The position numbers and the translations under genes are program-made. The notes under the pieces are model-generated. The model worked only from the letters and a program-made list of their open reading frames with translations, had not been told where the DNA came from and searched no databases. Positions 3,313 through 42,355 of a stretch of 42,355 nucleotides of DNA are shown piece by piece. Positions within the stretch are counted from its first letter, which is position 1. Every line of letters starts with the position of its first letter. The DNA comes from a virus, in the IMG/VR virus record IMGVR_UViG_3300044560_000017; one strand, 5' to 3'.

Positions 3313-3462
3313 CTACTTTTGTCGGGATTGCAATACTGCGGTAAGAACGGCTTTGTCCTTTTCCAGTTCAGCAATGCGGTTAACTAAGATAGTGACGACC
3401 TGGTTAGGGTCGGCTTTAATCATGTCTGGTGCCGGTTGTTGCTCTTTAATTGGTTTCGTCAT
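3313..3462 (-). CDS. Small 49-aa ORF between the tail fibre gene and the holin (hypothetical)
   Basis: Hand-translated MTKPIKEQQPAPDMIKADPNQVVTILVNRIAELEKDKAVLTAVLQSRQK. AGGGGG SD lies 8 nt upstream. Below the ORF-track size cutoff. Confidence 0.4.
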   Translation of the reverse strand: MTKPIKEQQPAPDMIKADPNQVVTILVNRIAELEKDKAVLTAVLQSRQK

Positions 3463-6400: not shown

Positions 6401-6679
6401 GTAGAGCAAGTGGTTGCCAGGTACGATGTTCTGAGCGTCCGGGGCATTACTTGGCACGGTGATACCAGTAATGGTGTGGTCGTAGGTCTTTTTATTCGCA
6501 GCCAAGTTGATGGTGTTGAACGTGTCTTTGAGGTCTTCCCAAGCAAAGGCACTGTCGTCCTCGGCAATGCTTTGGTCGATGGTATCGCCCCAAAATGGGG
6601 TTCCCGCTCGTACATGGTTACTCAGTAACCCAATACGCCGCAGTTGATTATCTAAAATAATATATTCGTCGTCGCGCAT
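3446..6679 (-). CDS. Tail-associated lysin-position protein / receptor-binding fibre (Tal-like N-terminus, Ala/Thr repeat stalk, SH3b-like insert, C-terminal S74 intramolecular-chaperone domain)
   Basis: Position directly after Dit. C-terminal SASKYKQDI...GLIAEDLQALGLDKFLYYG...VDYSKLWVLLIPVLSKL matches the auto-cleaving chaperone pattern of phage fibres. Confidence 0.85.
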   Translation of the reverse strand: MRDDEYIILDNQLRRIGLLSNHVRAGTPFWGDTIDQSIAEDDSAFAWEDLKDTFNTINLAANKKTYDHTITGITVPSNAPDAQNIVPGNHLLYYDSENQKHYVMRMMNIDQSSKETDQSFSFDAQNLCEWKLARTIPTAFSSNSVNAETAFTNLLAKSGWRLEYNSKSIMTLKEEYDGSSSAQSYLQQLAADYDLDVDCYVNLDSVGDVTDQIVEVSDHIGSTKRTRLDYRNDLVGVDRKLVDDALVTKLYVLGNDGATIEDANNGVAFLTDPDANAKYNHDIKGRGSTWLEGTITSETIKNSAGLLAWGKKQLKMYNHPRYNYTVQIRSDISGGIGDDFRVADFDLNPAMIVDARVIKVSKSKSDPSVHELTLGEYSTITPKKLNVDSDLTQLKKDVAQAHSDAISASNTADSAHTVAENATKNATDAIKKADSATTTAGAAKTAADTAQTTAKGAETTATNAKTVASSAQATAEKAQTVAGSAQTTADTAQTTAGNAQDTANTANTNATAAKSTANTANTTANAAKIAADNAQSTANTAHDEATKASTEVGNVSKTYFADNVYFQPNQPTGADDGALWFKVTDTEQYLNYHDDSTNGGTGSTTKTVTVQVSNDGTKVAASGRFTWSGQHPIKQSPSMTAATRAYTYSGLSATYNGKVIESGILWCYYTAYNGGIAYVPIKDLTSGTRYGTDTNAGSDPAAYHTETKTVTVAGSTGNAVNDSQISLKAENVDDVQQYLSSKWSSIPFQKQLVGANISGASIDAPLISLGDGGVVWSSYSITQDPRFYQPIAAQGTVAMAQGELVVSGQTQYYDASKNSWASYNTAGSMVDGTGTNYTTTIINAGGIKNEMQDSARSNLVGRTYMNGLKIALGNSNGTDVFTVDRNGLSHSVGLTAPNVYAPTRLHTKLVQPDGATDDLHLESGTGTSMVRSNSIYNVTNSHGANVYVTVHGGLARVASASKYKQDIHDMYDLDTLSAALLKAKPKYWFDKPSIQDIVDSASKNKEPNPDATTAEQPGLIAEDLQALGLDKFLYYGLDGELEGVDYSKLWVLLIPVLSKLRDDVATLKGVKSNDETN

Positions 6680-6694
6680 AATCTCGCAACCTTT

Positions 6695-8815
6695 CTATTG
6701 GATTGCCGGCCGAACACTCACGGAAATATCAACGTCGGGGCTTGAGGGATCAAAGGCAAGGGTGTTGTCCTTGCCACCGTCTAGCATGAAAAACGTCGAG
6801 TCCGGTGTAATTAGATAGTCGGCCGGTTCGTTATTCAGGAACACATGCCCGGTGTCGCAGTTAATATGCAGCTCGTCACCGGCATGGAAAACCTGTTGGT
6901 CAAAGTCGGACAAGTCACTATTTCCGGTAGCGCTTTGGTCGGGAATGGTGGTGCTGTCCCCAGAACTTGCAGCAGTGTCGGGCTTGACCGGGTTAACCGG
7001 GTTCGAGTCGGTGCCGTAAATTGCTTTGCCGGCAGTGTCATAGTAAGCCGCATAACGTCGGCCACCGGAGTAACTAATGTAACTCAGCCAGTAGTAGCCG
7101 TTTTGGAACACCTTGCGGTCATAGTAAACGGATTGCCCGGCGGCGTACGTAGCGGCGACTGAGCCACTAGTGTCTGGGCTATTGCGGACGTTGACGTTGG
7201 CGTTAAACTTGAACGTCCCCTTGGCTTCAATTGAGTAGCCTTCTGGGGTCGAACCTGGTGCCGGTGGAATGCCGTTAGAACTGGCCGTCCCTGAGCCACC
7301 TGTTGTGGTTGCCCCAGTAGTTTTAGCCGGTGCCGGTGCGTCTAGCAGCTCTTCAACCTTGTAATCGGTAATCGTCTGGAAGACGTTTTTGTAGGCAACC
7401 TTGGCCTTATCTTCGGTGATGTCGTGCTTGGCCGTGAAGAACGCAATGCTTCCCAGGTCAAAGTCGAACTTGCAATCAGTGTCAACGAACGTGACCCGAT
7501 CCTTGCCGAAATGAACCCCACTGTCCATGTAAGTCGCCGTTTTTGGGTCCCATTGGTCAATGGCATAGCCCCAGTTGATCGCGGTGGTGCCGTCGGCTTG
7601 CTTGACGTACTGCTTAACGATACTGAACTGGCCGAAGAAGTCAGAGAACGCGTCAACCATCTGGTTGTTGTCCAGGTACTTGGTGGCTTTCTTATACTTG
7701 ACCGCGACCGTTTCGTGATTACTGCTGTGAGCCAGACTCATGGCAGAACCATAGTACAGGTTCTTGTAGTCCACACCCTCAGTACCATCAGCGAAATTAC
7801 TGCCCAGTTGAACGTAGGCCTGCGGGTAACCACCACCCTTAACGTCCTTGAGGCCAATTCGCCCGCACGTCCGTTGCTTGGTGTCCAGAATGTAAACCTC
7901 AACCTTAGCCATAGCCCGGTAGTTGTGCGCACCGCTGTACTTACTGTGGTGTAGTCGGACTGATAGTTTCCAGTTCTTTGGCGAGTACGGCAATGCTTGG
8001 TGAAGCTCACCGGGGCCGTACCATTGTTCGTGGGTATTGACCTTACCAAAGTTGTAAGTTCCGTCAGAGTTCTTGGCTACCCGCAGAGAGGCGTCGGTTG
8101 AGGCCATTGCCCCGTCAATGTCGAGGTTGATGGTGCTAACCGGGTTCGCGTTCTCTTTAATCGCAGTCCACGTTGAGAGCGTAGTGCAGGGGTCGTGAAC
8201 TAGCATTCGGGTCTTGTCGTCGCTGCTCGTCCCGTCGCTGCCAGAATCAACGTCGGCGTCGCCACCTAGTTGGATAAACTCAGTGGATTGCTCGCCCGTG
8301 TCTTTAAGCACGGTGAACGTCTTCACGTCCTTGTTGAACGTAGCAACAATGATCGCGCCAACGGGCGTGTTTCCCTTAACAGGTAGCACCGCCGTGGTCG
8401 AGGCGTCGGCAACGTCCCAGTCTTGCTGCTCAAGGAACCCGCGCGGGTCTGAGCAAACAAAGGTGATAGTTGACGACCAATCAGAAACACCGTCGTTTAG
8501 CGGCTCGGGGTCACTAATCTGCGTAATGTGGGCGTAGAACGTATAGCCCGGCAGGTCGTCGAACGTCAACGGGTACTCAGTACCACGTTCCTCTTGCGGG
8601 TCAATGAATGCAGCAGAAAGCTCACGAATTTTTTGCTCGGCCAGTTGACCACCAGCCACCGAGTACAGTTGCGAATACGGCGTTAGGTAGTAGACCGGAA
8701 CGTTGATGGTCAACGCCCCATAAGACGACCCCTGATACACGGGGCCGTAACGGGCAGGAATGACCTGCGAACTTTCTGTGATTGCAGGGGTGACCGGCAA
8801 TAGTACCTTGCCCAT
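6695..8815 (-). CDS. Distal tail protein (Dit), enlarged form with inserted/C-terminal binding domains including an SH3b-like module
   Basis: Position between TMP and Tal. 706 aa, much longer than a minimal Dit. ANVNVRNSPDTSGSVAATYAAGQSVYYDRKVFQNGYYWLSYISYSGGRRY is SH3b-like. Confidence 0.78.
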   Translation of the reverse strand: MGKVLLPVTPAITESSQVIPARYGPVYQGSSYGALTINVPVYYLTPYSQLYSVAGGQLAEQKIRELSAAFIDPQEERGTEYPLTFDDLPGYTFYAHITQISDPEPLNDGVSDWSSTITFVCSDPRGFLEQQDWDVADASTTAVLPVKGNTPVGAIIVATFNKDVKTFTVLKDTGEQSTEFIQLGGDADVDSGSDGTSSDDKTRMLVHDPCTTLSTWTAIKENANPVSTINLDIDGAMASTDASLRVAKNSDGTYNFGKVNTHEQWYGPGELHQALPYSPKNWKLSVRLHHSKYSGAHNYRAMAKVEVYILDTKQRTCGRIGLKDVKGGGYPQAYVQLGSNFADGTEGVDYKNLYYGSAMSLAHSSNHETVAVKYKKATKYLDNNQMVDAFSDFFGQFSIVKQYVKQADGTTAINWGYAIDQWDPKTATYMDSGVHFGKDRVTFVDTDCKFDFDLGSIAFFTAKHDITEDKAKVAYKNVFQTITDYKVEELLDAPAPAKTTGATTTGGSGTASSNGIPPAPGSTPEGYSIEAKGTFKFNANVNVRNSPDTSGSVAATYAAGQSVYYDRKVFQNGYYWLSYISYSGGRRYAAYYDTAGKAIYGTDSNPVNPVKPDTAASSGDSTTIPDQSATGNSDLSDFDQQVFHAGDELHINCDTGHVFLNNEPADYLITPDSTFFMLDGGKDNTLAFDPSSPDVDISVSVRPAIQ

Positions 8816-23562: not shown

Positions 23563-24483
23563 CTAATGGACTACTCTTAGCAACAACTCATCTCTACGCT
23601 TGCCTGTTGCCGAAAAGTTTTGCTTATTGCCAAAATTAAAAGCCACCTCGGTATGAGGTAGCTTTGTGTATTCACTAATATAAATTTCTTTAGCTGGGCA
23701 TTCATGTAGATACCAATTCTCAAATGCTTTATGGTCGAATCCGTCATAATCGTACTGAGTCCCAACATATGGTGGATCACAGTAAACAACGTCATCAGCA
23801 TCGATGACTAGTTCGCGATAGTCCTTTACGGAATATTCCAGTTGTTCCAGTTGTTGCAGTCGTTGCAGTTGTTGCAGTTGTTCCAGTCGTTGCAGTTGTT
23901 GCAGTTGTTGCAGTCGTTGCAGTCGTTGCAGCAAATCATAACGAGAATTAATATTCATTTGTTCTAGTCGCCATTTATGGAATAATCTGTACTTCTCACT
24001 AATTGTATTAGCATTTAAAGAATAGCTATATAATTGGTCAAATTCCGTCCCAGTGTTTCCGTAAAAGAGGGCCTTAGTTAGCAATAACTTTTCCTCTTCT
24101 TTTTTTCTACCCCACAAATAATCCTTCTGATTATTACTAAATGAATAAGCAGTTAGCACTAACGTTCGTTCGATCGAATCAGGTTGATTATCTCGCCAAT
24201 CAAAAAATTGTTCTCGTGTTAATGCTACGTAATCCATCAAGTTGAAATGCGTCTCATCACTGACTAACGCTCTTAATAGCTCAACCACGGTTTTCCTTCG
24301 GTCATTATATATTACTTCTTCGTATTTTCCAGATGAAACAGCTGTCAAACTAACGCATCCACCCCCACCGAATACATCAACCAATCGTTTGCCATCGGGT
24401 AGGGCTTCCATAATTTGTTCAACCTTCTGTCCCTTGTTGCCAACGTACGGCAGTCCACGCTTCCATTTATCTTTTACTTTCAT
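23563..24483 (-). CDS. N6-adenine DNA methyltransferase (Dam/D12 class, alpha order) with an internal QQL/QRL/EQL repeat insert
   Basis: Motif I DVFGGGGCVSL and motif IV CDPPY. True start is ATG 24483 (MKVKDKWKRGLPYVGNKG). The 478-aa track ORF is a spurious upstream extension through the tRNA region. Confidence 0.9.
   Translation of the reverse strand: MKVKDKWKRGLPYVGNKGQKVEQIMEALPDGKRLVDVFGGGGCVSLTAVSSGKYEEVIYNDRRKTVVELLRALVSDETHFNLMDYVALTREQFFDWRDNQPDSIERTLVLTAYSFSNNQKDYLWGRKKEEEKLLLTKALFYGNTGTEFDQLYSYSLNANTISEKYRLFHKWRLEQMNINSRYDLLQRLQRLQQLQQLQRLEQLQQLQRLQQLEQLEYSVKDYRELVIDADDVVYCDPPYVGTQYDYDGFDHKAFENWYLHECPAKEIYISEYTKLPHTEVAFNFGNKQNFSATGKRRDELLLRVVH
23839..23928. repeat. Ten tandem 9-bp units (cagttgttg / cagtcgttg / cagttgttc) inside the methyltransferase gene
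   Basis: Counted unit by unit. Encodes LQRLQRLQQLQQLQRLEQLQQLQRLQQLEQL in frame. Confidence 0.95.
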
Positions 24484-24634
24484 CTTGGCTATGTTTTCCT
24501 TTCGATTGTAAATTAAAAGCGCCATGCTTCTCAGCGCGACGCTCATGTTTCTTCTTATCAGCCAGCCAACGCTCCAAGTCACGATAGCAGTGGTTCTCTG
24601 CTGGGCTAACGTAGCCATACTCAGTGTGTTGCAT
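24467..24634 (-). CDS. Small ORF (55 aa, basic, hypothetical)
   Basis: Hand-translated MQHTEYGYVSPAENHCYRDLERWLADKKKHERRAEKHGAFNLQSKGKHSQDESKR. GGGAG lies 11 nt upstream. Overlaps the MTase start. Confidence 0.3.
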   Translation of the reverse strand: MQHTEYGYVSPAENHCYRDLERWLADKKKHERRAEKHGAFNLQSKGKHSQDESKR

Positions 24635-24719
24635 GTAACCACACTCCCAACACGATAATGAGTAGTACCATCAGCAGGCCGAATATTAAGTTGTCCCGTT
24701 GATAGTTTCTCATTGCCAT
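24621..24719 (-). CDS. Small ORF (32 aa, one TM helix, hypothetical)
   Basis: Hand-translated MAMRNYQRDNLIFGLLMVLLIIVLGVWLHATH; GGAG immediately upstream. Confidence 0.3.
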   Translation of the reverse strand: MAMRNYQRDNLIFGLLMVLLIIVLGVWLHATH

Positions 24720-24730
24720 TACTCCAAACT

Positions 24731-24756
24731 AAAAGGCCGCCTCGTTTGAGACGGCC
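24731..24756 (-). terminator. Intrinsic terminator closing the tRNA / tRNA-like RNA segment
   Basis: Minus strand ggccgtctc-aaac-gaggcggcc followed by TTTT. Confidence 0.6.
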
Positions 24757-24760
24757 GTGT

Positions 24761-24806
24761 ATGTGATTGGTGTGGAATCGAACCACACGCGGTAATGAGC
24801 CTCCTG
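24761..24806 (-). pseudogene. Degenerate tRNA 3' half (CAT anticodon-loop-like + T-arm + acceptor 3' strand)
   Basis: gtgtgg-ttcgatt-ccacac T-arm plus caatcac acceptor strand, identical to the element at 24922-24949. ggctcattacc resembles the CAT anticodon loop. No 5' half is present. Confidence 0.5.
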
Positions 24807-24922
24807 ACGTGGACTTTTTTATATTTTCTAGCCACGTTTCAACCACCCGTCGACTTACGCTTTTAAGCTTAGCGTATAGAACTCGCATTTTGGTATTGCG
24901 CAATACCGTGGTTGCTGACCAA

Positions 24923-24999
24923 TGTGATTGGTGTGGAATCGAACCACACACGGGGTTCAAACCGCCCTCTTCTGGCAGGCCAACGCCAGTTACAATCAC
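24923..24999 (-). ncRNA. 77-nt tRNA-like element (perfect acceptor and T-arm, non-canonical core)
   Basis: Acceptor GTGATTG/CAATCAC 7/7 bp, U8-A9, T-arm GTGTGG-TTCGATT-CCACAC. No canonical 5-7-5 anticodon arm could be folded by hand. Confidence 0.45.
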
Positions 25000-25063: not shown

Positions 25064-25137
25064 TGGACCATGTAGGACTCGAACCTACGACCGAACGGTT
25101 ATGAGCCGTCTACTCTAGCCAACTGAGTTAAAGGTCC
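25064..25137 (-). tRNA. tRNA with anticodon CAT (Met, or Ile2 if lysidine-modified)
   Basis: Hand fold: acceptor GGACCTT/ATGGTCC (one T:T mismatch), D-arm ACTC-agttggct-(a)GAGT, anticodon arm GACGG-CTCATAA-CCGTT, variable CGGTC, T-arm GTAGG-TTCGAGT-CCTAC, discriminator A, no encoded CCA. Confidence 0.85.
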
Positions 25138-25149
25138 TTAATGACAATA

Positions 25150-25204
25150 CGTGCAGCGGGAGTCGAACCCGTATCTTCTTTGCTCTTCCGTTGAGCTATG
25201 CACG
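25150..25204 (-). ncRNA. 55-nt truncated tRNA-like element lacking the anticodon arm
   Basis: Acceptor CGTGCA/TGCACG, D-arm GCTC-aacggaa-GAGC, T-arm CGGG-TTCGACT-CCCG. Only ~10 nt lie where the anticodon arm plus variable loop (~22 nt) should be. Confidence 0.45.
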
Positions 25205-25279
25205 TCCATTTCATCAATCGCTTATGTTACCAATTTACACCCAAAATAGTGGTCAAAAGTGCGCAATTAGTGCACGATT

Positions 25280-26576: not shown

Positions 26577-27023
26577 TTAGTTGCGTTTTAGCAGAGGCCT
26601 TCCCGCCTTCCCCCTTTCTGTTCGTTGGTTCTCAATGTAGTGTTCGACTGTTTCTTTTGACATATCCCCTAAAGTGCCCATGTAATAGCTTGGCGACCAA
26701 AGGTGACCGCCCCAAACTATTTGTTGTGTTTCTGGATGAATTTTGAACCATTCGCGTGCTGAGACACCCTTTAATACCTTGACAATATTGGCCGGCGCGT
26801 ATTTTGGTTTAAAGCTGATTAGCAGATGGATATGATCAAGCATGACTTCGCCTTTCTCAATTTCAATTTCGTTTTGATTCGCAATGTTTTGCAAGATTGT
26901 CAACATCTCCTTTGCGAATCTTGGTGTGTTAAATATTTGTTTCCGATACTTCGTTACCCAGACTAAATGGAAGTGAAAGTTATAAACATATCCGCGTTCG
27001 TGTTTCACGTTTTCTTTTGACAT
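26577..27023 (-). CDS. tnpA: IS200/IS605 Y1 (HUH) transposase TnpA
   Basis: HFHLVWVTKYR (HUH) and WSPSYYMGT (catalytic Tyr), 148 aa. Confidence 0.93.
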   Translation of the reverse strand: MSKENVKHERGYVYNFHFHLVWVTKYRKQIFNTPRFAKEMLTILQNIANQNEIEIEKGEVMLDHIHLLISFKPKYAPANIVKVLKGVSAREWFKIHPETQQIVWGGHLWSPSYYMGTLGDMSKETVEHYIENQRTERGKAGRPLLKRN

Positions 27024-27089: not shown

Positions 27090-27115
27090 AAGTATAGTCT
27101 AAGGAGGTGATATAT

Positions 27116-28360
27116 GTGACTAAGAAAATGTCTGAGTTCAAATACCATTACGGAATTAAAATGCGAATATTCCCATCTCGTGAGCAGAAACATCAGCTTG
27201 ACAACAATATCAACGCAAGCCGTTTTGCTTACAACGAAATGGTGGCTATCGACAAAGAACTATTTCAATTGCGTAAAGTAAAGTGTTACATTGCTTCGGT
27301 TGTTAATCGCATTGCCTACCTGCAGAAACGTAAAAACAACACACAAATGTTGTTTGCACTACATCCTTGGTTATCAGGTACCAATGTAGGTACCGACGTT
27401 GTAGATCAAGCACGACGAGCTTATCAGAGCGCGTGGCGTTTATTTCGACAAGTACACAGATCTGGCACACCAAAGTTCCATAAAAAGCAGATGAGTGGCA
27501 GCTTTCAGCTCCCAAATCGCTATGCTAAGGTTCAGCCGAATTTGTTCAATGGCAGTTGCCGTTTTCTCGATTCTAAGCATGTGAAAATTAGCTTGATTGG
27601 CCGATTGCGTGTGTCTGGGTCACATAGACGCTTGTTTAGTCGTGGCAATGATGTTCGTATTGGAACAATCACTGTCTCGCGCGATGCCACTGGGCGTTAC
27701 TACTTATCTATGCAACTAGGATCGGACACCCCGTTTGTTGTGGGTGGCAAGCAACAGATCTCTCCAGTAGGCATTGACCTAAATACTGACAATTTCCTAA
27801 CTGATTCAAACGGCAACATCGTTGCCAATCCACGTTACTATCGCTCTATCAAGGGCAAGCTAGCCAAAGCCCAACGTAAACTTTCTCGTCGTGCGCTACG
27901 GGCTAAAAAAGAAAATCGGCCGCTTCGTGAAGCTAAGAATTATCAGAAACAACGTGTATTGGTGGCCACCCTCCAGCGAAAAGTTGCTAATCAACGTAAC
28001 AACTTTCTACATCTTGTCTCAACAACACTTATCAAGAACCACGATTTAGTTGTTGCAGAGGAGTTGCGGAGTAAGAATATGTTACGAAACCATGCATTGG
28101 CAATGAGCATTGCTGATGTTGGCTGGCGAACTTTTTTAGGCATGCTGGCCTATAAAGCCGACCTATACGGCCATAAATTTGTCACCGTTAATCCGCGTAA
28201 CACGACGCAAACCTGTAGTGAGTGTGGATATTTGATGTGCGGTGATAAAAAACTGACCTTAAAAGATCGTGAATGGACTTGCCCACAGTGCGGTAATCAC
28301 CACATTCGCGATTGGAATGCTGCTAAAAACATTCTCAAAAAAGGCTTGGCAAGTGCTTAA
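27116..28360 (+). CDS. tnpB: TnpB (IS605 OrfB; RuvC-like RNA-guided nuclease family)
   Basis: GIDLN, VVAEEL and IRDWNAAKNI RuvC-like motifs; zinc ribbon CSECG...CPQCG. Start GTG 27116 preferred (8 nt after AAGGAGG); track start is 27107. Confidence 0.9.
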   Translation: MTKKMSEFKYHYGIKMRIFPSREQKHQLDNNINASRFAYNEMVAIDKELFQLRKVKCYIASVVNRIAYLQKRKNNTQMLFALHPWLSGTNVGTDVVDQARRAYQSAWRLFRQVHRSGTPKFHKKQMSGSFQLPNRYAKVQPNLFNGSCRFLDSKHVKISLIGRLRVSGSHRRLFSRGNDVRIGTITVSRDATGRYYLSMQLGSDTPFVVGGKQQISPVGIDLNTDNFLTDSNGNIVANPRYYRSIKGKLAKAQRKLSRRALRAKKENRPLREAKNYQKQRVLVATLQRKVANQRNNFLHLVSTTLIKNHDLVVAEELRSKNMLRNHALAMSIADVGWRTFLGMLAYKADLYGHKFVTVNPRNTTQTCSECGYLMCGDKKLTLKDREWTCPQCGNHHIRDWNAAKNILKKGLASA

Positions 28361-31197: not shown

Positions 31198-31629
31198 TCA
31201 GAACGGAAGATCACTATCTTGAATATCAATTGGCTTGCCGTCATTAGCAAACGGATCACTCGTATTATTTTGTGGCCGATTATCTTGATAACTACCGTTA
31301 CCAGTAGAGCTTTTTGGTTCCAAGAACGAGAAGTTATCAACAATAACTTCCGTAACATATACGCGTTGGCCTTGCTTATTTTCATAGTTGCGTGTTTGAA
31401 TACGGCCATCAATGCCGACAAGGGAACCCTTGTGGAAGAAGTTAGCAAAGTTTTCTGCGGGCTTGCGCCAAATGACGCAACTTACGAAATCAGCTTCGCG
31501 CTCACCTTGTTTGTTGGTGAACCGCCGGTCAACGGCCAGATTGAAAGCAGCTACAGCATCACCGCCTTGCGTATACCGTAAATCCACATCACGGGTTAGT
31601 CGTCCAGTCAAAACTACTCGATTAATCAT
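31198..31629 (-). CDS. ssb: Single-stranded DNA-binding protein
   Basis: [20 protein letters not shown]... OB-fold signature and acidic tail DSDLPF. Confidence 0.95.
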
Positions 31630-34891: not shown

Positions 34892-34978
34892 AGTATAGGT
34901 CAACTTTAAGTTATAGTCAATAACTTTGTATAACTTTTTAAAACTAAAAGTTGATTTTATATAACATTATGTTATACT
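34892..34978. promoter_or_regulatory. Genetic switch: divergent promoters and operators
   Basis: Leftward TTGACT-17-TATACT (34892-34920); rightward TTGATT-16-TATACT (34951-34978). Perfect 17-bp palindrome tataacat-t-atgttata (34960-34976). Five GTTATA/TATAAC half-sites between 34910 and 34993. Confidence 0.6.
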
Positions 34979-35011: not shown

Positions 35012-35728
35012 ATGAAACCAGAAAACGAAATTTCAAGTCAAATAAAAGTTCTTCGATCTAAAATGGGCTGGTCTCAATCTCAACTAGCTGATAAATTAGG
35101 AGTATCTAAACAATCAGTTTCAAATTGGGAAACAAACCTAAAAACGCCCCGAATGGGAGCGCTTCAAAAAATGTCAGATTTATTTGGCGTCAGCATTGGC
35201 CGGATAACTGACGGAGATAGGTTTGAAAATAATCTAATTCAGAAAACCGCTCAATTAATGCAAAGATTGCCTTATAGTAAGCAGCAAGAAGTATTTGATT
35301 TTGCCAAGAGTCGATTGACACTAAATGTTAATTCTAACGTTATCAAATTTCCTAAAGACGATGACACCCTCGAAATTACCGCCAGTGGTGTCCTCTCTGC
35401 TGGTGTGGGTGAGTTCCTTGATGATTCTACTAAGCCATTCACTGTAACCGTGCATAAGCCTATTCCTAGCGATTATGACTATGCCTTCCAGATCAACGGC
35501 CACTCAATGGAGCCTGTGTACCAGGATAAGCAAGTTGTCTTCGTCAAGAAGGAAGACGATTACCGTGATGGTCAGATCATCGCCGCGGTTATGGATGGGT
35601 GCGCGTATCTGAAAAAGCTGTCAGTAGTTGATGGCGAGGCTACGCTGGTATCACTCAACCCACAATATCCTAATATCAAAGTTGATAAGGAATCTGGCGT
35701 CAAAGTATTAGGCGTTGTGTTCTCATAA
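35012..35728 (+). CDS. CI-like repressor (XRE HTH + S24 LexA-like autopeptidase)
   Basis: N-terminal HTH MGWSQSQLADKLGVSKQSVSNWE. C-terminal GHSMEP (Ser) and AYLKKL (Lys) dyad. Confidence 0.93.
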   Translation: MKPENEISSQIKVLRSKMGWSQSQLADKLGVSKQSVSNWETNLKTPRMGALQKMSDLFGVSIGRITDGDRFENNLIQKTAQLMQRLPYSKQQEVFDFAKSRLTLNVNSNVIKFPKDDDTLEITASGVLSAGVGEFLDDSTKPFTVTVHKPIPSDYDYAFQINGHSMEPVYQDKQVVFVKKEDDYRDGQIIAAVMDGCAYLKKLSVVDGEATLVSLNPQYPNIKVDKESGVKVLGVVFS

Positions 35729-35854
35729 GTCCCCTACATGGGGACTTCTCTTAACACTTCAAAAGAACATACGTTTGATTAACCGGGTGGTTGATCATAG
35801 GTCCGAGTCCTATGTAATCAGTTGATTCACGACTTAAATATGGAGGTTGCTATT

Positions 35855-36166
35855 ATGACAACGTTTGAATTAGAAGAATACTTGGCAGCACATAGCCAGA
35901 TTGTCGACAATTTTCGAGATAAGTATGCTGCGTTCCTAAACGAACAAAACGCAGACCGCCCCACCAATAAAAAGTGGAGTAGTCTGCGCATTGATAACGT
36001 AACTGATAGTGGTGCTAACCGGTTCATTGGCAATATCCAAGCCAAATTGAGTTCAGCCATGAAGCCTCGCCAGAGAAAATCTTATGATGGCTGGGTTGAT
36101 TATATGGAACGCAATGAAACCATCGGTAGCTTGGAAGAGTCCCTAGTTGATCTGGATTTTGTTTAA
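35855..36166 (+). CDS. Hypothetical protein on the lysogeny side (103 aa)
   Basis: Trimmed to ATG 35855 (GGAGG SD). Same strand as cI. No recognisable motif. Confidence 0.5.
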   Translation: MTTFELEEYLAAHSQIVDNFRDKYAAFLNEQNADRPTNKKWSSLRIDNVTDSGANRFIGNIQAKLSSAMKPRQRKSYDGWVDYMERNETIGSLEESLVDLDFV

Positions 36167-36265: not shown

Positions 36266-36300
36266 ATAAAAAAAGCCTGAATCTAAAAATTCAGGCTTTC
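36266..36300. terminator. Bidirectional intrinsic terminator
   Basis: A7-gcctgaat-ctaaaa-attcaggc-TTT. Confidence 0.7.
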
Positions 36301-36323
36301 TTACTATAAATTAATATTTACTA

Positions 36324-37775
36324 TTATTGAAAGGCACTAACGCTACCAGTGTTTTGGATAGTAGAAGCACTACCTTTATCTTCCTTAGCAGTGTTGTAGA
36401 AGGCATATGCAATACCATTAGTAGTGTAAGTACCTGCAACACCAGAAGTTAACGTGTAGGTGGTGTGATAAAGTTGTGGTGAGAAAGTTCCCCCCGCATA
36501 TTGCTTAGTATGACCATCAGCATTAACAGCCTTAGCAGAGTTAGGAGCAACCACATTATGATTAGCATCCTTAGCATAAGGAACTGAGGTCAAAGTGTTG
36601 GCCTTGTTAATAGTCAAGAAGTTTTGAACGTCAGCAGCGGTGTAGTTAGCACCATTAGCGCCAGAGAAGGCAGCAGTTAACTTTGGGGTCGTTACTTTGA
36701 AAGGCAATTTACCAGAAGAGCTCAACTTAACTGGGGCGTTAACACCGTCTTGGTAGTATGCAGCAATGCTTTGAACAGCTTGTGCACCCTTAGTAACCGT
36801 TAAGCTAACTGTATCACCGGTCTTTGCAGCATACAAAGCAGCTTTGTTAGCAGCATTGCCTTCTGAGTAAGTATAACCAGTACCCTTTAATAGTGGATCA
36901 CTCCAGGCCTTAGTTGCACTTTTAACCGCATCATAACCAACAGCAGTACCCTTAGCATTTGCCTTAGCAGTACCAATAGCAGTGTTGTCAGCGTTGTTTG
37001 CAGTCAGCTTAGGTAAAGTAGCGGACTTTAAAATCGTACCATTAGGAGCAACAAAGTTTACCTTAACATCAGTTGCTTGGTTGTAAATAGCGGAAGCATC
37101 AGTCGTAACGGCCTTGCTGTAGATCCAACCATTAACCGTAGGGTTTTGTTGGTCTTCAACGTAGTAGTATAATGAGCCTTCACGAGTCTTAGTTTCAGCC
37201 TTAGTGACCTTTAAAGTGTCACCGGCGAAAGGAGTGGTGTTCTTAACAACTTTAGAAGCACCAGACTTGTATTGAGTGTACTTAGGCGCAGTCCAGGTAA
37301 CATTCTTAGTACCAGGATTAGTGAAAGTAACAGTCTTACCAATCATGCTGTCAGTCGTGTTAGCAGTAGTCGTTTCAGCGGCCTTGATCCCGCCGCCGAA
37401 CGTACCGTTAACCTTACCACCGTAAACATAACCACGGTACTTTTGGTCCATGGTTACAACACGGTAGTATACGGAACCACGGTTAGTAATCTTAACACCG
37501 TAAGCACGGAAGTAGTTAGCGGACTTCTTGGAAGCCGCTAATTCTTGAACCTTGGCCTTAGAAGCAACGATTTTAGCCCCTTTAACCGTGCCTGGCTTGG
37601 TGTAGATGGCGTTAGTTCCCGTCAACGAAACGTTTTGCGCCTTGGCACCTAAAGCTGCCTTAGACGAAATCGTGACATGACTTGCAGCTTGCGCTGGCGT
37701 TGCGAAGTTTGCTGCTGCCCCTAAGCTCATTGCAGCTAAACCGACGTACAACGTCTTTTTCAAACTAGATTGCAT
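36324..37775 (-). CDS. Secreted S-layer-protein-like paralog 1 (divergent C-terminal half)
   Basis: Signal peptide MQSSLKKTLYVGLAAMSLGAAANFATPAQA. Conserved block [22 protein letters not shown]...[33 protein letters not shown]. No Cys. From memory this resembles L. brevis Slp proteins. Confidence 0.82.
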   Translation of the reverse strand: MQSSLKKTLYVGLAAMSLGAAANFATPAQAASHVTISSKAALGAKAQNVSLTGTNAIYTKPGTVKGAKIVASKAKVQELAASKKSANYFRAYGVKITNRGSVYYRVVTMDQKYRGYVYGGKVNGTFGGGIKAAETTTANTTDSMIGKTVTFTNPGTKNVTWTAPKYTQYKSGASKVVKNTTPFAGDTLKVTKAETKTREGSLYYYVEDQQNPTVNGWIYSKAVTTDASAIYNQATDVKVNFVAPNGTILKSATLPKLTANNADNTAIGTAKANAKGTAVGYDAVKSATKAWSDPLLKGTGYTYSEGNAANKAALYAAKTGDTVSLTVTKGAQAVQSIAAYYQDGVNAPVKLSSSGKLPFKVTTPKLTAAFSGANGANYTAADVQNFLTINKANTLTSVPYAKDANHNVVAPNSAKAVNADGHTKQYAGGTFSPQLYHTTYTLTSGVAGTYTTNGIAYAFYNTAKEDKGSASTIQNTGSVSAFQ

Positions 37776-37815
37776 CATGTTCTCCCCTAAAAAATAGATT
37801 TATGGTACGTGCTTA

Positions 37816-37842
37816 AGTATAGCAAGCCCCCCACCATTGCAA
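37816..37842 (-). promoter_or_regulatory. Candidate promoter of paralog 1 (TTGCAA-15-TGcTATACT)
   Basis: Extended -10 motif cttgctatact, shared with the paralog 2 upstream region (39394-39404). Confidence 0.35.
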
Positions 37843-37885
37843 AATACTTTTCTGCAATCGGGGTCAAATTTGGTATAAATATGAA

Positions 37886-37925
37886 AATAAAAAGGACTCC
37901 CACCAGTCTCATAATGGGAATCCTT
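37886..37925 (-). terminator. Intrinsic terminator after paralog 2
   Basis: Minus strand ggattccca-loop-tgggagtcc followed by TTTTTATTTT. Confidence 0.7.
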
Positions 37926-37959
37926 CATTAAAGGTTAAAGTTTAGAGGAATAACGCAAA

Positions 37960-39351
37960 TTACGCAATCCAGCTGGTATCAGAGGACGTCACTGTCGCGG
38001 CCCCTTCTGTCAGCGTTGCACTGAAGCTAGCCTTCAACGTATCACCGTAATTAGCTAGACGATTATCACTTGCAAAGTTAGTCGGCTCATAACTAAAGAC
38101 GTAGTGGAATGGTGTCCCATCCGCAGCATAGTAGGTCTTGTCCCCAGAGACACTAGTTGCCGTAATTGCACTAGAGATGGTGCCGAGATTAGTTGCGCCA
38201 ATTTGAGTCCCCTTATCACCGGTCAAGGCTTTGACACCAGTTTCAGATAAAGTTGCTGATAAGTCACTCGCGTAAAGCTTATCTCCAGCGGACAACAAGC
38301 CAGCTACTGGGTTAGTAGCCGTTGAAGCCGTATTCGTGACGGTATCAGCCACCATTTGAATCTTAGACGTTGCTGCTGCTTCAACATTAACGTAAACGGT
38401 ATTCCCGTATTGTGCGGCACTCGTGTCCACCGTTCCATTCGTTGTATAACCACTTGGAACCGAGTTATTAACAAAATCAGATAATGTGACCCCGGCAGCA
38501 TTTTTATCTCCAGCGTTAACCGATGATCCAGCTGTGGTTCCGCTATTTGCCGTAATCCAAGTTGAACTACCAACCGTGGTACCACTATCGTCACGGTAAA
38601 CGACCTTCACACTATTATCGGCCGTTGCCGCCGCATCAGACATGGTTAAGGATAAACCACCCAAGTTTTGCGTTGCCGTATTAGCCACATAGCCTTGACC
38701 AGCAAAAATCCAACCTGATACAGCGGAGTTATTTTCATCCGTTACGTGATAGTACAATGACCCTTCACGTGTCTTCGTCACAGCCTGATCAACTTTAAAG
38801 GTATCCGTTGACTTAGCCCCATACAGACTAACTTTCTTAGCCTTATATTGGGTGTATTGTGGTGCTGTCCACAAAGTATTCTTCGTAACATCCTTAAGGT
38901 AATATCCAGTTGTTCGAGCAGGCATCGGCGCCGTTGTTGTGGTATTAGCAGCTTTAATCCCACCAGCAAAGGCCGTATCGGACTTACCACCATAAATGTA
39001 GCCCCGATACTTTCCGTTCATCGTGACAACGCGGTAGTAAACTGAACCGCGGTTCGTGGTCCGAACACCATAAGCCCGAAAGTAATCCGCAGACTTCTTA
39101 GAGGTCGCTAACGTCTTTAACGTCGTCTTAGAAGCTACGACCTTAGCCCCCTTGACCGTTCCCGGTTTCGTGTACAAGGCATTCGTACCGGTTGCTTCCA
39201 CGTTTCGCTTAGTGGCATCCGTTGTTAAAGTCTTATACGCACCCATTGTGGCATAGGATTTAGCTGAAGCAGTAGATGATACCGCGGCAACGGCACCAAA
39301 ACTCAAAGCCGCTAATCCCAAATAAAGTGTCTTTTTCAAACTCGCTTGCAT
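37960..39351 (-). CDS. Secreted S-layer-protein-like paralog 2
   Basis: Trimmed to ATG 39351: [30 protein letters not shown] signal peptide. Same conserved N-terminal block. C-terminal half colinear with paralog 3. Confidence 0.82.
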
Positions 39352-39475
39352 AAAACGAACAACTCCCTTGTCTATTATTTGTAACTGTTTCCAAGTATAG
39401 CAAGGCAACAATATTTCAGATAGTTTTAGCAGTTTGAAGGTTTGTTTTCCTAATATTGGGTTAAAGTTGACAAAA

Positions 39476-39511
39476 CAAAAAGGACTCCAACCGAAGTCGG
39501 AATCCTTTTTT
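39476..39511 (-). terminator. Intrinsic terminator after paralog 3
   Basis: Minus strand ggattccgac-ttcg-gttggagtcc followed by TTTTTGTTTTG. Confidence 0.75.
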
Positions 39512-39544
39512 ATTTACTGTTAATGTTTAATTTAAAGGTTTAAA

Positions 39545-40921
39545 TTAAGCAATCCAGTTACTGTTTGAAGAAGTGTTCTTAGGAGCACCCTTAGTCAAAA
39601 CAGCCTTGAAGCTGGCAGTCAAGTTGTCACCGTAAGTGGCAAGACGGTTGTCAGTCGTGAAGTTATTTGATTCGAAGGTAAATACGTAGTGGTAAGCATC
39701 ACCATTAGCTGCGTAGTAGGTCTTCGTACCAGTGATAGCAGCAGTACCGAATTCATCCTTGATAGCAATCAAATTAGTTTTACCAATTTGAGTGCCCTTA
39801 GTACCAGTTAAGGCCTTAACACCAGTAGCACTTAAGGTAGCAGTTAAATCAGCTGCAGATAACTTAGCGCCCTTAGCTAACGGATTAGCAACAGTAGCCT
39901 TGGCTTCAACATTATCAGCAACTAATTGTACCTTAGACGTAGCAGCAGCCGTTACGTCAACGTAAACCGTGTTGCCGTAAGTAGCAGCAGCGGTGTTAGC
40001 AGTACCAGTCGTGGTGTAACCAGATGGTAAGGAGTTAGTAACGAAGTCAGCTAACTTAGTACCAGCAGCGTTGGTAGCATCAGTACCAACCGTAGCACCG
40101 GCCTTAGTACCAGCAGCGTTAGTGATCCAAGTAGCAGTAGCTACTTGAGCACCGTTAGCACGGTAAACAACCTTAACACTGTTGTCGTTAGTAGCAGCGG
40201 CATCAGACATCGTTAAGGAAAGACCACCAAGGTCTTGGCTCGTAGCGTTAGCAACGTAGCCCTTACCAGCGTAAATCCAGCCAGAAATAGCAGAATTGTT
40301 TACGTCGGTAACGTGGTAGTATAATGAACCTTCCTTGGTCTTAGTAGCAGCTTGGTCTACCTTGAAAGTATCGGTAGCCTTAGCACCGTACATGTTAACC
40401 TTCTTGGCCTTGTATTGGGTGTACTTAGGTGCGTTCCAAAGCGTGTGGCTGGAAACGTCCTTCAAGTAGTAACCAGTAGTCCGAGTTGGGTTAGTAGCGG
40501 TCTTAGTCGTTTCAGCAGAAGTAATCCCGCCGCCGAACGTACCGTTAACCTTACCACCGTAAACATAACCACGGTACTTTTGGTCCATGGTTACAACACG
40601 GTAGTATACGGAACCACGGTTAGTGGTCTTAACACCGTAAGCACGGAAGTAGTCAGCAGACTTCTTAGAAGAAGCTAACTTAGCCATCGTTGCCTTAGAA
40701 GCAACTACCTTAGCACCCTTAACAGTACCAGGCTTAGTGTAAAGTGCGTTAGTACCAGTAGCTTCTACGTTACGCTTAGTAGCGTCAGTAGTCAGCTTGC
40801 TGTAAGCACCGGCAGTTGCATAGCTCTTAGCACTTGCAGTAGTGGTAGTAACAGCTGAAAGACCAGCTAAACCTAACACTGCAGCGCCTAAATAAATGGA
40901 CTTTGCGAATGATGAACGCAT
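39545..40921 (-). CDS. Secreted S-layer-protein-like paralog 3
   Basis: Signal peptide [31 protein letters not shown], conserved N-terminal block, strong AGGAGG SD. Confidence 0.85.
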
Positions 40922-40996
40922 AGATGAAAACCTCCTAATAATTTCTTTTTAGCAAAAACATTATGTAAATGTCCACAATCATTCTCGCTAACGGCA

Positions 40997-41025
40997 ATTA
41001 TAGCATACGTTACCAACTATGCCAA
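40997..41025 (-). promoter_or_regulatory. Candidate promoter of paralog 3 (TTGGCA-17-TATAAT)
   Basis: Exact 17-nt spacer, perfect -10, ~70-nt leader to the start codon. Confidence 0.5.
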
Positions 41026-41077
41026 AAGAAAACTTTAAAAAATTCACGAAAAAGTCATAATCACTAAAATAGTGCAC

Positions 41078-41108
41078 AAAAAAACCCTTCAACAGGTCAG
41101 CGGAAGGG
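41078..41108 (-). terminator. Candidate intrinsic terminator for leftward transcripts upstream of the paralog 3 promoter
   Basis: Minus strand cccttc-12 nt-gaaggg followed by T7. Confidence 0.45.
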
Positions 41109-41588
41109 AAGAATCATGGATTCATCTATGCAGGTACAATTATATCTTATATGTAGCAAAAAAGCAATGACGATGAAATGTTTGTAACAAAAAAGGACGC
41201 CCTGCTTGAAGGAGCGCCCAATCTTCAAAGAAGGAAAAAACCAACTCTAAAGAAATCTCTTAATGCAGACTAACATCTATTTAATATAATGTCAATAAGA
41301 ATAGAAAGAAGAACGTTTCCATTAAGTTACTAACAGTAGTAGAGAACAAGCAAACCTAATAACACTTACCATCATTTCATTGCTTAACATGCTATGGCTG
41401 ATAATACAATTAGCTATACCAATTTTTACTTTACATAAGGCGGCTTATCCCAAGTAACCCACATTCACCGCGGTACTTCCACATTCCGTTATTTTTTGAT
41501 TGTGAACTTGTCCAAAAAAGAAGTGGTATAGGTCGCAGATTGGCTTTAATTGGGGAAAGGAAGTTTGTGAAATTTACTGGTATTACTC

Positions 41589-41921
41589 CTAGACCGTTCC
41601 CTTAAATTCAACTGTCTCATTCTTTGTATTAACCAAAAATTTGCCAACACTTCCCCGATACTTCACTGATACTTTAAAGGAATACTTGTAATTTACCCGA
41701 GTGTATCGAATACTACTAATTCTTCCCTGATACCCTTGACTACGCAAAACTCTCTTCACTTGGTTCCTTTGTCGCTCAGTAATTCTTGCAGAACTCCGAT
41801 AGATTGTCTTCTTAACGATCACATCTGGATTCAATGGAACAATGTAATCCTTACATTCCAACAATTCCACCAACTTTCTTTTTTTCTTTGGAATTTGACT
41901 TGACGGGTTACGGTTTTCCAT
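41589..41921 (-). CDS. Orphan basic 110-aa ORF (hypothetical; may not be expressed)
   Basis: Open frame in an AT-rich region, KKKRKL tract. No SD (upstream is CTCCCTC). No recognisable motif. Confidence 0.3.
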   Translation of the reverse strand: MENRNPSSQIPKKKRKLVELLECKDYIVPLNPDVIVKKTIYRSSARITERQRNQVKRVLRSQGYQGRISSIRYTRVNYKYSFKVSVKYRGSVGKFLVNTKNETVEFKGTV

Positions 41922-42119
41922 TCAGTTTAGAGGGAGTGACGTTTTGAGCGCAGAATTGTTCCCTGGAATCAGCTATTTGGAATAACTGAACCAGAGTACA
42001 ATTCTACTACTAAAAGTTTCCCCTTAGTTCGTCGGTCGTTAACGCCCGTCGCTTGTCTGTACAATTGCGGTATTGCTACCACCACTCATTATAAACCTAC
42101 GTTTTCGGTTTAGCCTACT

Positions 42120-42141
42120 AAAAAACGCCCTAGCAGGCGTT
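42120..42141 (-). terminator. Weak candidate terminator for the leftward transcript that starts near 198
   Basis: Minus strand aacgcc-tgctag-ggcgtt running into T6; short stem. Confidence 0.3.
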
Positions 42142-42255
42142 GATGATACGTATTTATTTTTGTTCGATCACCAACTAATCAGTGGCACCAAGCCGAAGCT
42201 TCGTTTTACCACCCGCGCCGTTAATGGCCGCGCTCACCATTCACCACCCAGCCGT

Positions 42256-42355
42256 ACAGATGACCTTGTTGTGGTATAGCCAGACTTATTGAAGTCGCAC
42301 TGGCAAACGTGTCCCCTTGGATTTAGACCCCAGCTTGTCCCCTAGGGCTTTAAAA
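42256..42355. repeat. Terminal direct repeat, copy 2 (identical to 1-100)
   Basis: See copy 1. Confidence 0.9.

Follow-up and report, generated by a model that had tools for sequence, protein, structure and literature searches.

The window analysed here is the whole stretch of 42,355 nt of the IMG/VR virus record IMGVR_UViG_3300044560_000017, and its subject is an array of three tandem genes (slp1, slp2 and slp3) coding, by homology, for surface-layer (S-layer) proteins of the Levilactobacillus brevis type. The array lies in a cargo slot of a phage-plasmid, and related elements carry a single slp gene in this slot (hereafter slot gene). All three genes are on the minus strand and are transcribed in the order slp3, slp2, slp1, opposite to their numbering. 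slp3 (39545-40921) encodes a 458-aa protein of the SlpA class with a leader of phage-plasmid type, slp2 (37960-39351) a 463-aa SlpA-class paralogue with a leader of chromosomal type, possibly a weakly expressed copy, and slp1 (36324-37775) a 483-aa protein of the SlpC/SlpB/SlpM class, wherein the leader and 5' end are of chromosomal type and the body matches the single slp gene of related elements. These lengths are those obtained from the start codons that give the family leader. For slp1 this is the second ATG (484 aa from the first; open reading frame (ORF) listed at 36324-37778), and for slp2 an ATG lying inside a TTG-extended ORF of 483 aa (37960-39411). Three same-strand genes of 483, 463 and 458 aa had been noted in a first-pass annotation made from the letters of the window, and they were recovered as minus-strand ORFs.

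Signal peptides were judged by inspection of the sequence. The Sec leader ends in AQA, followed by ASHV, in slp1, and in ASA, followed by KSYAT, in slp2 and slp3, as in the reference protein Q05044, the mature form of which comprises 435 of 465 residues. Cysteine is absent from the three proteins, their mass is 47.5-50.3 kDa and their whole-protein isoelectric point (pI) 9.3-9.8, which agrees with L. brevis-type S-layer proteins (44-51 kDa, pI ~9.5, no cysteine; reference values from PMC9504196 Table 1). The first 190 mature residues form a basic N-terminal region (pI 9.9), and the C-terminal part of slp2 has a pI of 4.2. The AQA/ASA leaders and the lack of cysteine had been described correctly in the first-pass annotation, and so had a block shared by the N-termini: about 220 N-terminal residues are common to the three proteins, and a 256-nt DNA repeat, 70-86% identical and with a period of 1567-1570 nt, occurs once in each gene (37367-37622, 38937-39192 and 40504-40759). 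The C-terminal halves had been described as colinear in two copies and unrelated in the third. This holds for slp2 and slp3, which are 68% identical over their full length, and for slp1 against slp3, between which no BLASTP similarity is found in this part (E = 3.3); the C-terminal half of slp1 is nevertheless no orphan, as it belongs to the SlpC/SlpB/SlpM class. In a profile-profile alignment of the SlpA-type and slp1-type proteins the match is driven by the N-terminal half, and the C-terminal part is collinear but weak, so that the two kinds of C-terminal half, unrelated by BLAST, are possibly similar in architecture.

The identity of the three proteins was tested by direct homologues, because the slp family has no profile in Pfam, NCBIfam, PHROGs or PADLOC, and scans of the three proteins with these libraries returned nothing significant. 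For slp3, 546 homologues were found, many of them named S-layer protein. It is 88% identical to a chromosomal Slp of the L. namurensis type and, over its full length, 79% identical to G1UE81 (SlpA) and 57% to the Swiss-Prot entry Q05044 (SlpA), both reached through a cluster look-up; the corresponding full-length values for slp2 are 75% and 57%. G1UE81 is the dominant S-layer protein in a proteomic study (PMC9504196), and Q05044 is the SlpA of strain ATCC 8287, of which the wall-binding and self-assembly domains have been mapped (PMC2571106). All three proteins are 57-59% identical to residues 1-220 of Q05044, i.e. to its N-terminal wall-binding region, and it is in these 220 residues only that slp1 resembles SlpA. 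The best-matching references for slp1 are SlpC and SlpB of strain ATCC 14869, the second and first gene of a tandem pair, with 44% identity over the full length and 37% over 390 residues, respectively; these two were recognised by an exact match of mass and pI (SlpC 48.86 kDa, pI 9.66; SlpB 50.92 kDa, pI 9.54). The identity of slp1 with the slot genes of two related contigs, L010 and L014, reaches 75%, and its C-terminal half has 13 relatives among 5.8 billion proteins.

AlphaFold models were obtained with a predicted local distance difference test (pLDDT) of 85 for slp3 and 76.6 for slp1. The N-terminal half of both models matches the GW/SH3-like Listeria autolysin structure 5jqc (E = 1.5e-5 and 2.7e-4), and the slp1 model matches the crystal structure of the SlpM C1 domain, 9m6y_A (probability 1.0, template modelling (TM) score 0.73, 28% identity). 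Both structures were seen by fold search only, a PDB sequence search with slp3 and slp1 giving no match. Among viral resources, the BFVD structures contained no match at E <= 1e-3, a scan of IMG/VR with conserved peptides returned no relative, and phage Lb was the sole match in INPHARED. All features of the L. brevis-type S-layer family that can be examined in a sequence are thus present (leader, basic N-terminus, C-terminal homology and composition). The comparison with reference Slp proteins thereby confirms, at the level of homology, the family assignment proposed at first: slp1, slp2 and slp3 encode L. brevis-type S-layer proteins, the formation of a lattice being predicted.

Each slp gene is preceded by a ribosome-binding site, visible in the sequence, and by a promoter-like site, and is followed by a hairpin (z-scores of -3.2 to -6.2), which bears out the earlier statement that every copy has its own Shine-Dalgarno sequence, promoter and terminator. 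The slp3 promoter (40997-41025, minus strand; TTGGCA, 17-nt spacer, TG.TATAAT) has 11 of 12 matches plus the TG and is the best promoter match of the region. It is conserved in the element family, and the upstream region is kept in phage Lb, pBR431, pUCCLB556_D and the elements L003, L010 and L014. At the 5' end of the predicted slp3 5' untranslated region (5'UTR) stands a stem-loop (40949-40991, minus strand; -16.3 kcal/mol, z -2.1) that is conserved across slot genes and may, like the 5'UTR of slpA in L. acidophilus (PMC3666127), stabilise the mRNA. The other two genes have signals of a different kind. slp2 has an extended -10 element of chromosomal slp type (TGCTATACT, 39394-39402, minus strand), and slp1 a promoter-like site (37816-37843, minus strand; TTTGCA, 16-nt spacer, TG.TATACT) the surroundings of which find their best DNA matches (73-78%) in intergenic stretches within chromosomal slp arrays. 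The motif TGNTAYAHT occurs upstream of 84 of 147 slp genes, with a peak about 60 nt before the start codon.

Intrinsic terminators, all on the minus strand, follow slp3 (39477-39510; -22.7 kcal/mol, z -4.7), slp2 (37891-37926; -20.9 kcal/mol, z -3.2) and slp1 (36269-36302; -19.6 kcal/mol, z -6.2). The last was not picked up by the consensus scan, probably because A residues lying upstream can pair with its T-run. Between orf110 and the slp3 promoter, two candidate hairpins, each followed by a T-run, were also seen by eye (41075-41235, minus strand) and were not listed by the consensus scan; they would shield slp3 against upstream transcription.

Codon bias was expressed as the effective number of codons (Nc), and the values were compared with those of 80 non-slot Levilactobacillus slp genes, mostly chromosomal (quartiles 33.1, 39.6 and 45.0). 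With Nc of 31.1 and 33.1, slp3 and slp1 are as strongly biased as the most biased quartile of this reference set, the slot genes of other elements ranging from 31.5 to 39.9. The value for slp2 (47.8) resembles that of the phage genes (43-57) and of weakly biased secondary chromosomal slp copies. The array thus shows moron-type features, i.e. a promoter and terminator of its own, a position between modules, and Nc of 31-33 against 43-57 in its neighbours.

The window begins and ends with the same 100 bases (1-100 and 42256-42355), so that the sequence closes into a circle of 42,255 unique bp. It contains virion, packaging and lysis genes (TerL, portal, major capsid, tape measure, Dit, Tal and GH25 lysin), an HTH/S24 (LexA-like) repressor, a Rha antirepressor, ERF, and a ParA (AAA_31) ATPase with a DUF5388 partner. 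No integrase is present among the ORFs of at least 300 aa, each of which has another identity; smaller ORFs were scanned in part. By this gene content the window is considered as a complete circular phage-plasmid of a Levilactobacillus host, predicted to be partitioned, non-integrating and repressor-controlled, in line with the mobile and partitioned carrier first proposed; it may also be inducible, a property suggested by the LexA-like S24 repressor only. Its relatives are circular plasmids of 42-45 kb from Levilactobacillus (PLSDB) and the isolated phage Lb.

On its left the slot is bordered, on the plus strand, by a block (35012-36166) with the S24/HTH CI-type repressor (35012-35728) and orf114 (35822-36166; phrog_7823), which is convergent with the slp genes and the synteny of which is kept in all relatives examined. 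On its right, orf110 (41589-41921, minus strand; annotated with a BRCT domain in relatives) lies in a block of ~950 bp (41410-42355) that runs over the circle junction to ParA (443-1249) and DUF5388 (1252-1620). The ~1.1-kb block upstream of parA-DUF5388 (41410-42355 plus 1-191) is found, 90-98% identical and always so placed, in 374 PLSDB plasmids. These are plasmids of Lactiplantibacillus, Levilactobacillus, Pediococcus and others, mostly ordinary mobilizable ones, and no gene is listed in the block there. No Rep gene is evident in the window. The right-flank block is presumably the replication/partition region, and it may include the origin of a widely shared replicon.

Since the record is of metagenomic source and the repeat recurs with a ~1.57-kb period, chromosomal slp repeats might have been joined into a phage-plasmid contig during assembly. 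The copies of the repeat, however, share no more than 70-86% identity, each of the two outer junctions is peculiar to the phage-plasmid, the ends of the contig join to form a circle, and the array or its junctions occur in contigs from at least four samples. The exact slp3 protein is encoded on ten other metagenome contigs. One of these places the genes in the same order (lysin, DUF5388, ParA, orf110, slp3, slp2, slp1, orf114, repressor) on 43,657 bp, three short contigs from other samples span orf110-slp3-slp2, and five more places are reported with mostly the same neighbours as those of slp3. The 43,657-bp sister contig comes from another sample and is ~1.4 kb longer than the circle of the window. 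Circle closure and the recurrence of the same array and junctions in other contigs make a misassembly very unlikely, to a degree where it can practically be neglected, and the continuity of the array across its junctions, on which the first reading of this DNA depended, is borne out by these contigs.

One Slp-type gene was found in the same slot, between the repressor and orf114 on one side and orf110 and ParA on the other, in phage Lb (MG020111, Heilongjiangvirus Lb), pBR431, L. suantsaii pCBA3634-02, pUCCLB556_D, the plasmid unnamed2 of strain M10, TMW 1.2112 pl12112-1, SC013 plas4, L. pentosus LB-1 unnamed3, and the contigs L010 and L014 from GTDB genomes. The slot gene of phage Lb is annotated as nucleic acid binding protein, and several of the plasmid slot genes are already labelled S-layer protein in GenBank. 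In PLSDB, 15 plasmids have a Slp-type gene, 14 of them at a single place and one, from L. hilgardii, at two. A search of metagenomes with the conserved 5'UTR gave five loci, all of them single-gene, and no other multi-copy slot. The triple array is therefore a so-far unique state within the element family, the norm being a single slp gene; of the S-layer cargo described in the first-pass annotation, the triplication is peculiar to this element and the presence in the slot is not. On chromosomes, tandem slp loci are common, as had been stated, with typically 2-7 genes in 40-odd species.

TerL is 95.7% identical in one relative only, and ~50% or less elsewhere. Compared with the phage Lb-type relatives the virion modules thus differ (TerL ~50% identical or not detected, except in CP079701), and since they vary in this way among relatives, the slp slot travels with the lysogeny and maintenance backbone.

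Two of the relatives call for comment on their own account. The L. pentosus LB-1 plasmid unnamed3 (NZ_CP129545.1, 44,097 bp) carries a SlpA-class gene in the same slot in a Lactiplantibacillus pentosus genome. The L. pentosus species group is not known to have an S-layer of this type, and the record represents either a host jump or a misassigned strain. pUCCLB556_D (29,556 bp) keeps the segment with repressor, orf114, slp, orf110 and parA as well as a capsid-gene remnant, and has in addition MobQ, topoisomerase III, glycosyltransferases and an LPXTG adhesin; from this content it appears to be a chimeric or decayed element.

What unites the slot genes is an expression module. One leader type is found in 11 of 11 slot genes of other elements and in slp3, and the slot genes also share the promoter, a ~70-nt 5'UTR beginning with the stem-loop, and an AGGAGG ribosome-binding site. 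Behind this module the mature proteins diverge, with 39-99% identity in the N-terminal block and with C-terminal parts of at least three classes that BLAST does not relate to one another. A census of the 120 best homologue clusters of slp3 found the slot leader in 55, the longest contigs of which are at most 45.6 kb (20 at 38-46 kb). On contigs of more than 50 kb, the slot leader is present in 0 of 55 clusters, versus 14 of 38 for the MQSSLKK-type chromosomal leader (Fisher p = 6.5e-7). As it is confined to small contigs, the slot leader is considered as a marker of the phage-plasmid slot, and, judged by this marker, public data contain many and varied slot S-layer proteins. Within the window, slp3 alone carries the family promoter, 5'UTR and leader. 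slp2 and slp1 have the chromosomal-type leader and the TG.TATACT extended -10 element ~60 nt upstream that most chromosomal slp genes have. The attribution of an MQSSLKK-type leader to the array thus applies to slp2 and slp1 and fails for slp3, and the three genes are not equivalent.

Products of such slot genes have been recorded in protein data. In the L. brevis surface proteome, A0A856KME7 and A0A1W6NKR1 are among ten S-layer proteins identified in LiCl extracts (PMC9504196 Table 1). An exact match of mass and pI identifies A0A856KME7 (UCCLB556_pD0019) with the slot gene product of pUCCLB556_D and A0A1W6NKR1 (AZI11_14340) with a protein encoded on a 43,257-bp plasmid. The family leader is present in both, and their slot origin is unmentioned in that study.

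The relation between the array and the single-gene state was established by alignment with the slot gene of L014, L010 and L003. From 346 nt upstream of the ATG to ~codon 125, this gene is 97-100% identical to slp3 in nucleotides, the identity then falling to 40-60%; against slp1 it rises from ~40% to 97-100% at ~codon 85 and keeps this level to ~codon 285. The single gene thus follows slp3 up to a crossover zone at 40550-40669 (minus strand, ~codons 85-124) and slp1 from the corresponding zone at 37413-37532 (minus strand, ~codons 82-121). As the single slot gene consists of the slp3 5' end and the slp1 body, one crossover interconverts the two states, and the alignments show the array and the single-gene state to differ by one recent crossover in the conserved N-terminal block. 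Two directions are possible. Chromosomal-type DNA (a SlpA-type C-terminal half, a whole gene and the 5' end of a third gene) could have been inserted into a single slot gene; or an unequal crossover between slp3 and slp1 could have removed 3.1 kb and brought the SlpC-class body behind the slot module. The slp2-slp1 spacer and the slp1 5' end have their best matches (73-78%) in spacers of chromosomal arrays. A donor search for slp2 and the slp1 5' end gave best DNA matches of only 70-78% identity, so that the donor is taken to be unsampled.

The chromosomal-type character of slp2 and of the slp1 5' end, the weak codon bias of slp2, the single-gene state of all other slots examined and the presence of 70-86% identical direct repeats, which invite deletion, would all be expected if slp2 and slp1 were a recent and irrelevant capture of chromosomal array DNA on its way to deletion, only slp3 being of consequence. 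Such neutral hitchhiking is considered as improbable: all three reading frames are uninterrupted and have their full set of signals, several contigs assembled independently of one another contain the identical array, and the slp1 body is the slot gene of three other elements and has a very strong codon bias.

The explanation regarded as the best, and as rather probable, is that the window is a phage-plasmid with a family-specific S-layer expression unit in its cargo slot, which would bring about lysogenic conversion through Slp and would be renewed by recombination. The slot unit (near-consensus promoter, 5'UTR, strong ribosome-binding site and Sec leader) would drive slp3, the self-contained slp2 and slp1 following it. 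The genes would be transcribed in the plasmid-prophage state, independently of the lytic programme, and their products exported by Sec and bound to the wall through two GW/SH3-like modules, where they could join or partly replace the host lattice and so change the outermost surface of the cell. Homologous recombination in the N-terminal block, with chromosomal arrays or within the array, would bring new exposed C-terminal domains under the control of the slot unit.

The likeliest benefit would be an altered adsorption of competing phages, effects on the host niche coming second. This ranking is based on analogy with the S-layer receptors of other Gram-positive bacteria and on the hypervariable mature part behind a fixed module; in L. 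helveticus, C. difficile, B. anthracis and Caulobacter, phages use S-layer proteins as receptors (PMC13437554, PMC11806420). A further-reaching version, put forward tentatively and with less conviction than the preceding explanation, is that the slot is a dedicated expression site of fixed promoter, 5'UTR and leader, the mature Slp of which is exchanged again and again through homologous recombination, both with chromosomal slp arrays and with tandem copies on the element. These temperate phages would then be a main vehicle of S-layer diversification and horizontal transfer within the genus and would exclude competitors by means of the altered lattice, and the array would be an exchange intermediate caught in the act.

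Alternatively, the cargo might mainly serve the host, through adhesion, tolerance of stress or of hop and acid, or interaction with the immune system, and thereby stabilise carriage of the element with no part in phage competition. The S-layer proteins of L. brevis mediate adhesion and respond to growth conditions (PMC3666127, PMC9504196), the slots of relatives also hold quinol monooxygenase and toxin-antitoxin genes, and the replication/partition backbone is common to hundreds of ordinary plasmids of lactic acid bacteria. We regard this as somewhat unlikely, as an extreme diversity of the mature part behind an invariant module fits, by analogy, a surface engaged in an arms race better than an adhesin that stays fixed.

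A role in the infection cycle of the phage itself would be suggested by the receptor function of S-layer proteins elsewhere (PMC13437554, PMC11806420) and by its baseplate proteins (3446-8815, minus strand), wherein SH3_5 wall-binding domains are inserted in Dit (residues 527-589) and in Tal (619-681), the latter with an alanine-zipper segment besides; these domains suggest adsorption to a cell-wall component. The Slp proteins would then supply or spread a receptor lattice, or act as secreted decoys that bind neighbouring walls. The slp genes are, however, placed in a lysogeny-side slot, convergent with the repressor and each with its own promoter and terminator; the Slp N-terminal block has no significant similarity to the SH3_5 domains of Dit and Tal or to the lysin, and Slp type is unlinked to the virion module, all of which makes such a role highly improbable.

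Several observations weigh against the favoured explanation, i.e. against lysogenic conversion by a renewable S-layer unit. The slp cargo is, by its distribution, dispensable, because, of the 17 plasmids in PLSDB that have a close homologue of orf114, a Slp-type gene is present in only 9, and the others include at least one conventional MobQ/RepA plasmid in which the slot, between the same flanks, is occupied by other genes. The relative with the closest TerL (95.7%) has a very different Slp, Slp type and tail module being unlinked in sequence. The two slot products A0A856KME7 and A0A1W6NKR1, the only proteomic data at hand, were recovered with low coverage (13.8% and 27.8%) as minor and not dominant components, and were detected in strains without stated genomes, where shared peptides are possible. 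No compensatory changes or covariation were seen in the 5'UTR hairpin, the z-score of which is modest. Finally, the sequence relation at the crossover fits expansion and deletion alike.

The array was compared with several known systems. With the chromosomal slp genes of L. brevis (slpA of ATCC 8287; slpB-slpC and slpD of ATCC 14869; SlpM) it shares the protein family, the Sec leader, the basic N-terminal and variable C-terminal parts, the lack of cysteine, tandem loci, individual promoters and, in the main copies, a strong codon bias; it differs in being located on a phage-plasmid and in that the leader and 5' region of its first copy are never found on large chromosomal contigs. With phage Lb, pBR431, pCBA3634-02, pl12112-1 and LB-1 unnamed3 it has in common lysogeny, the slot, the replication/partition backbone and the slp module with its leader, but these elements have one slp gene each instead of three.

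The O-antigen-modifying gtr and oac genes of P22- and Sf-type phages are surface-modifying genes of lysogenic conversion (morons). Like them, the slp genes are self-contained prophage units near the immunity region that would alter the outermost surface and could block the adsorption of other phages. gtr and oac encode enzymes that modify an existing polymer, whereas here the phage would supply a structural surface protein.

In Campylobacter fetus, the sap genes give S-layer antigenic variation through recombination in a conserved 5' block. In L. acidophilus, slpA and slpB are exchanged by recombination in a conserved 5' block as well (PMC3666127). As in both of these systems, the slp genes have a conserved 5' coding block and a variable remainder, and by recombination a different variable part comes to stand behind an expression site that stays fixed; in the array this block is the 256-nt repeat, which the paralogues have in common and within which the crossover to the single-gene elements lies. 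In the window, however, the copies are direct and not inverted, a promoter-like site precedes every one of them, they are accompanied by no recombinase or invertible segment, and the exchange observed is one between elements on an evolutionary time scale and not a programmed switch. Programmed S-layer cassette switching was accordingly rejected, the genes being in direct orientation and each having promoter-like and terminator signals.

CwpV of C. difficile is a phase-variable wall protein that protects against phages (PMC4737114). It resembles the Slp proteins in being secreted and wall-anchored, with a conserved anchor and a variable outer part, and in its link to phage resistance, but it is chromosomal, unrelated in sequence and experimentally proven, phage protection by Slp being hypothesised here. 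In archaea, S-layer genes on mobile elements or plasmids have been described in Halorubrum lacusprofundi and Haloarcula marismortui (cited in PMC13437554). There too the main lattice gene is on or beside mobile or viral DNA, but the products are glycoproteins without sequence kinship to Slp, and the genes are not carried in a conserved expression slot of a defined temperate phage-plasmid.

Full-text literature searches found no paper on S-layer genes of Levilactobacillus phages or phage-plasmids, and reviews of 2013 and 2026 are silent on them. What would be new, on the sequence data presented here, is a surface-altering lysogenic conversion in which the phage supplies a structural lattice protein, and the findings suggest that Levilactobacillus phage-plasmids routinely move and reshuffle the outermost layer of the cell. 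In these cells S-layer proteins exceed all others in abundance and are the interface for phage adsorption, adhesion and immune contact. If slp carriage is indeed routine, part of the S-layer variation of the L. brevis group (beer-spoilage, sourdough, silage and probiotic strains) would be mobile, phage-borne and lost on curing, which would explain "extra" S-layer proteins in proteomes. A structural surface protein would join the list of lysogenic conversion functions, and a testable model of phage competition through lattice remodelling would be available. Secretion and display might be a further use for the conserved slot promoter, 5'UTR and leader, which could be taken over as a ready-made cassette.

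With regard to the immunity region, the cI-cro intergenic region contains two perfect palindromes that are candidate operators, AAGTTAT-N5-ATAACTT (34908-34926) and TATAACATTATGTTATA (34960-34976), and a second exact copy of the former lies in the recombination/replication gene cluster (31331-31349). Operator-like palindromes of the cI-cro type were searched for near the slp promoters and none were found, and direct control of the slp genes by CI was dropped for this reason.

Other features of the window lie outside the slp region. The early region of the phage contains an IS200/IS605 pair, with a Y1 transposase TnpA (26577-27023, minus strand) and TnpB (27107-28360, plus strand); copies of TnpB adjoin the slp slot in L. 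suantsaii pCBA3634-02, pUCCLB556_D and L. pentosus LB-1. Two adjacent tRNA genes (25064-25205, minus strand; 63.8 and 40.9 bits) are the sole Rfam hits in the window. The (G + C) content is 48-55% in the virion/lysis module (2001-23000; 0.56-0.64 at third codon positions) and 36-46% in the early, lysogeny and plasmid modules (24001-42355), a sharp step that, together with the divergence of TerL in most backbone relatives, suggests that backbone and virion genes form a modular mosaic. A 478-aa D12-class N6-adenine DNA methyltransferase (23563-24999, minus strand), probably an orphan methylase guarding against restriction, adjoins the packaging genes.

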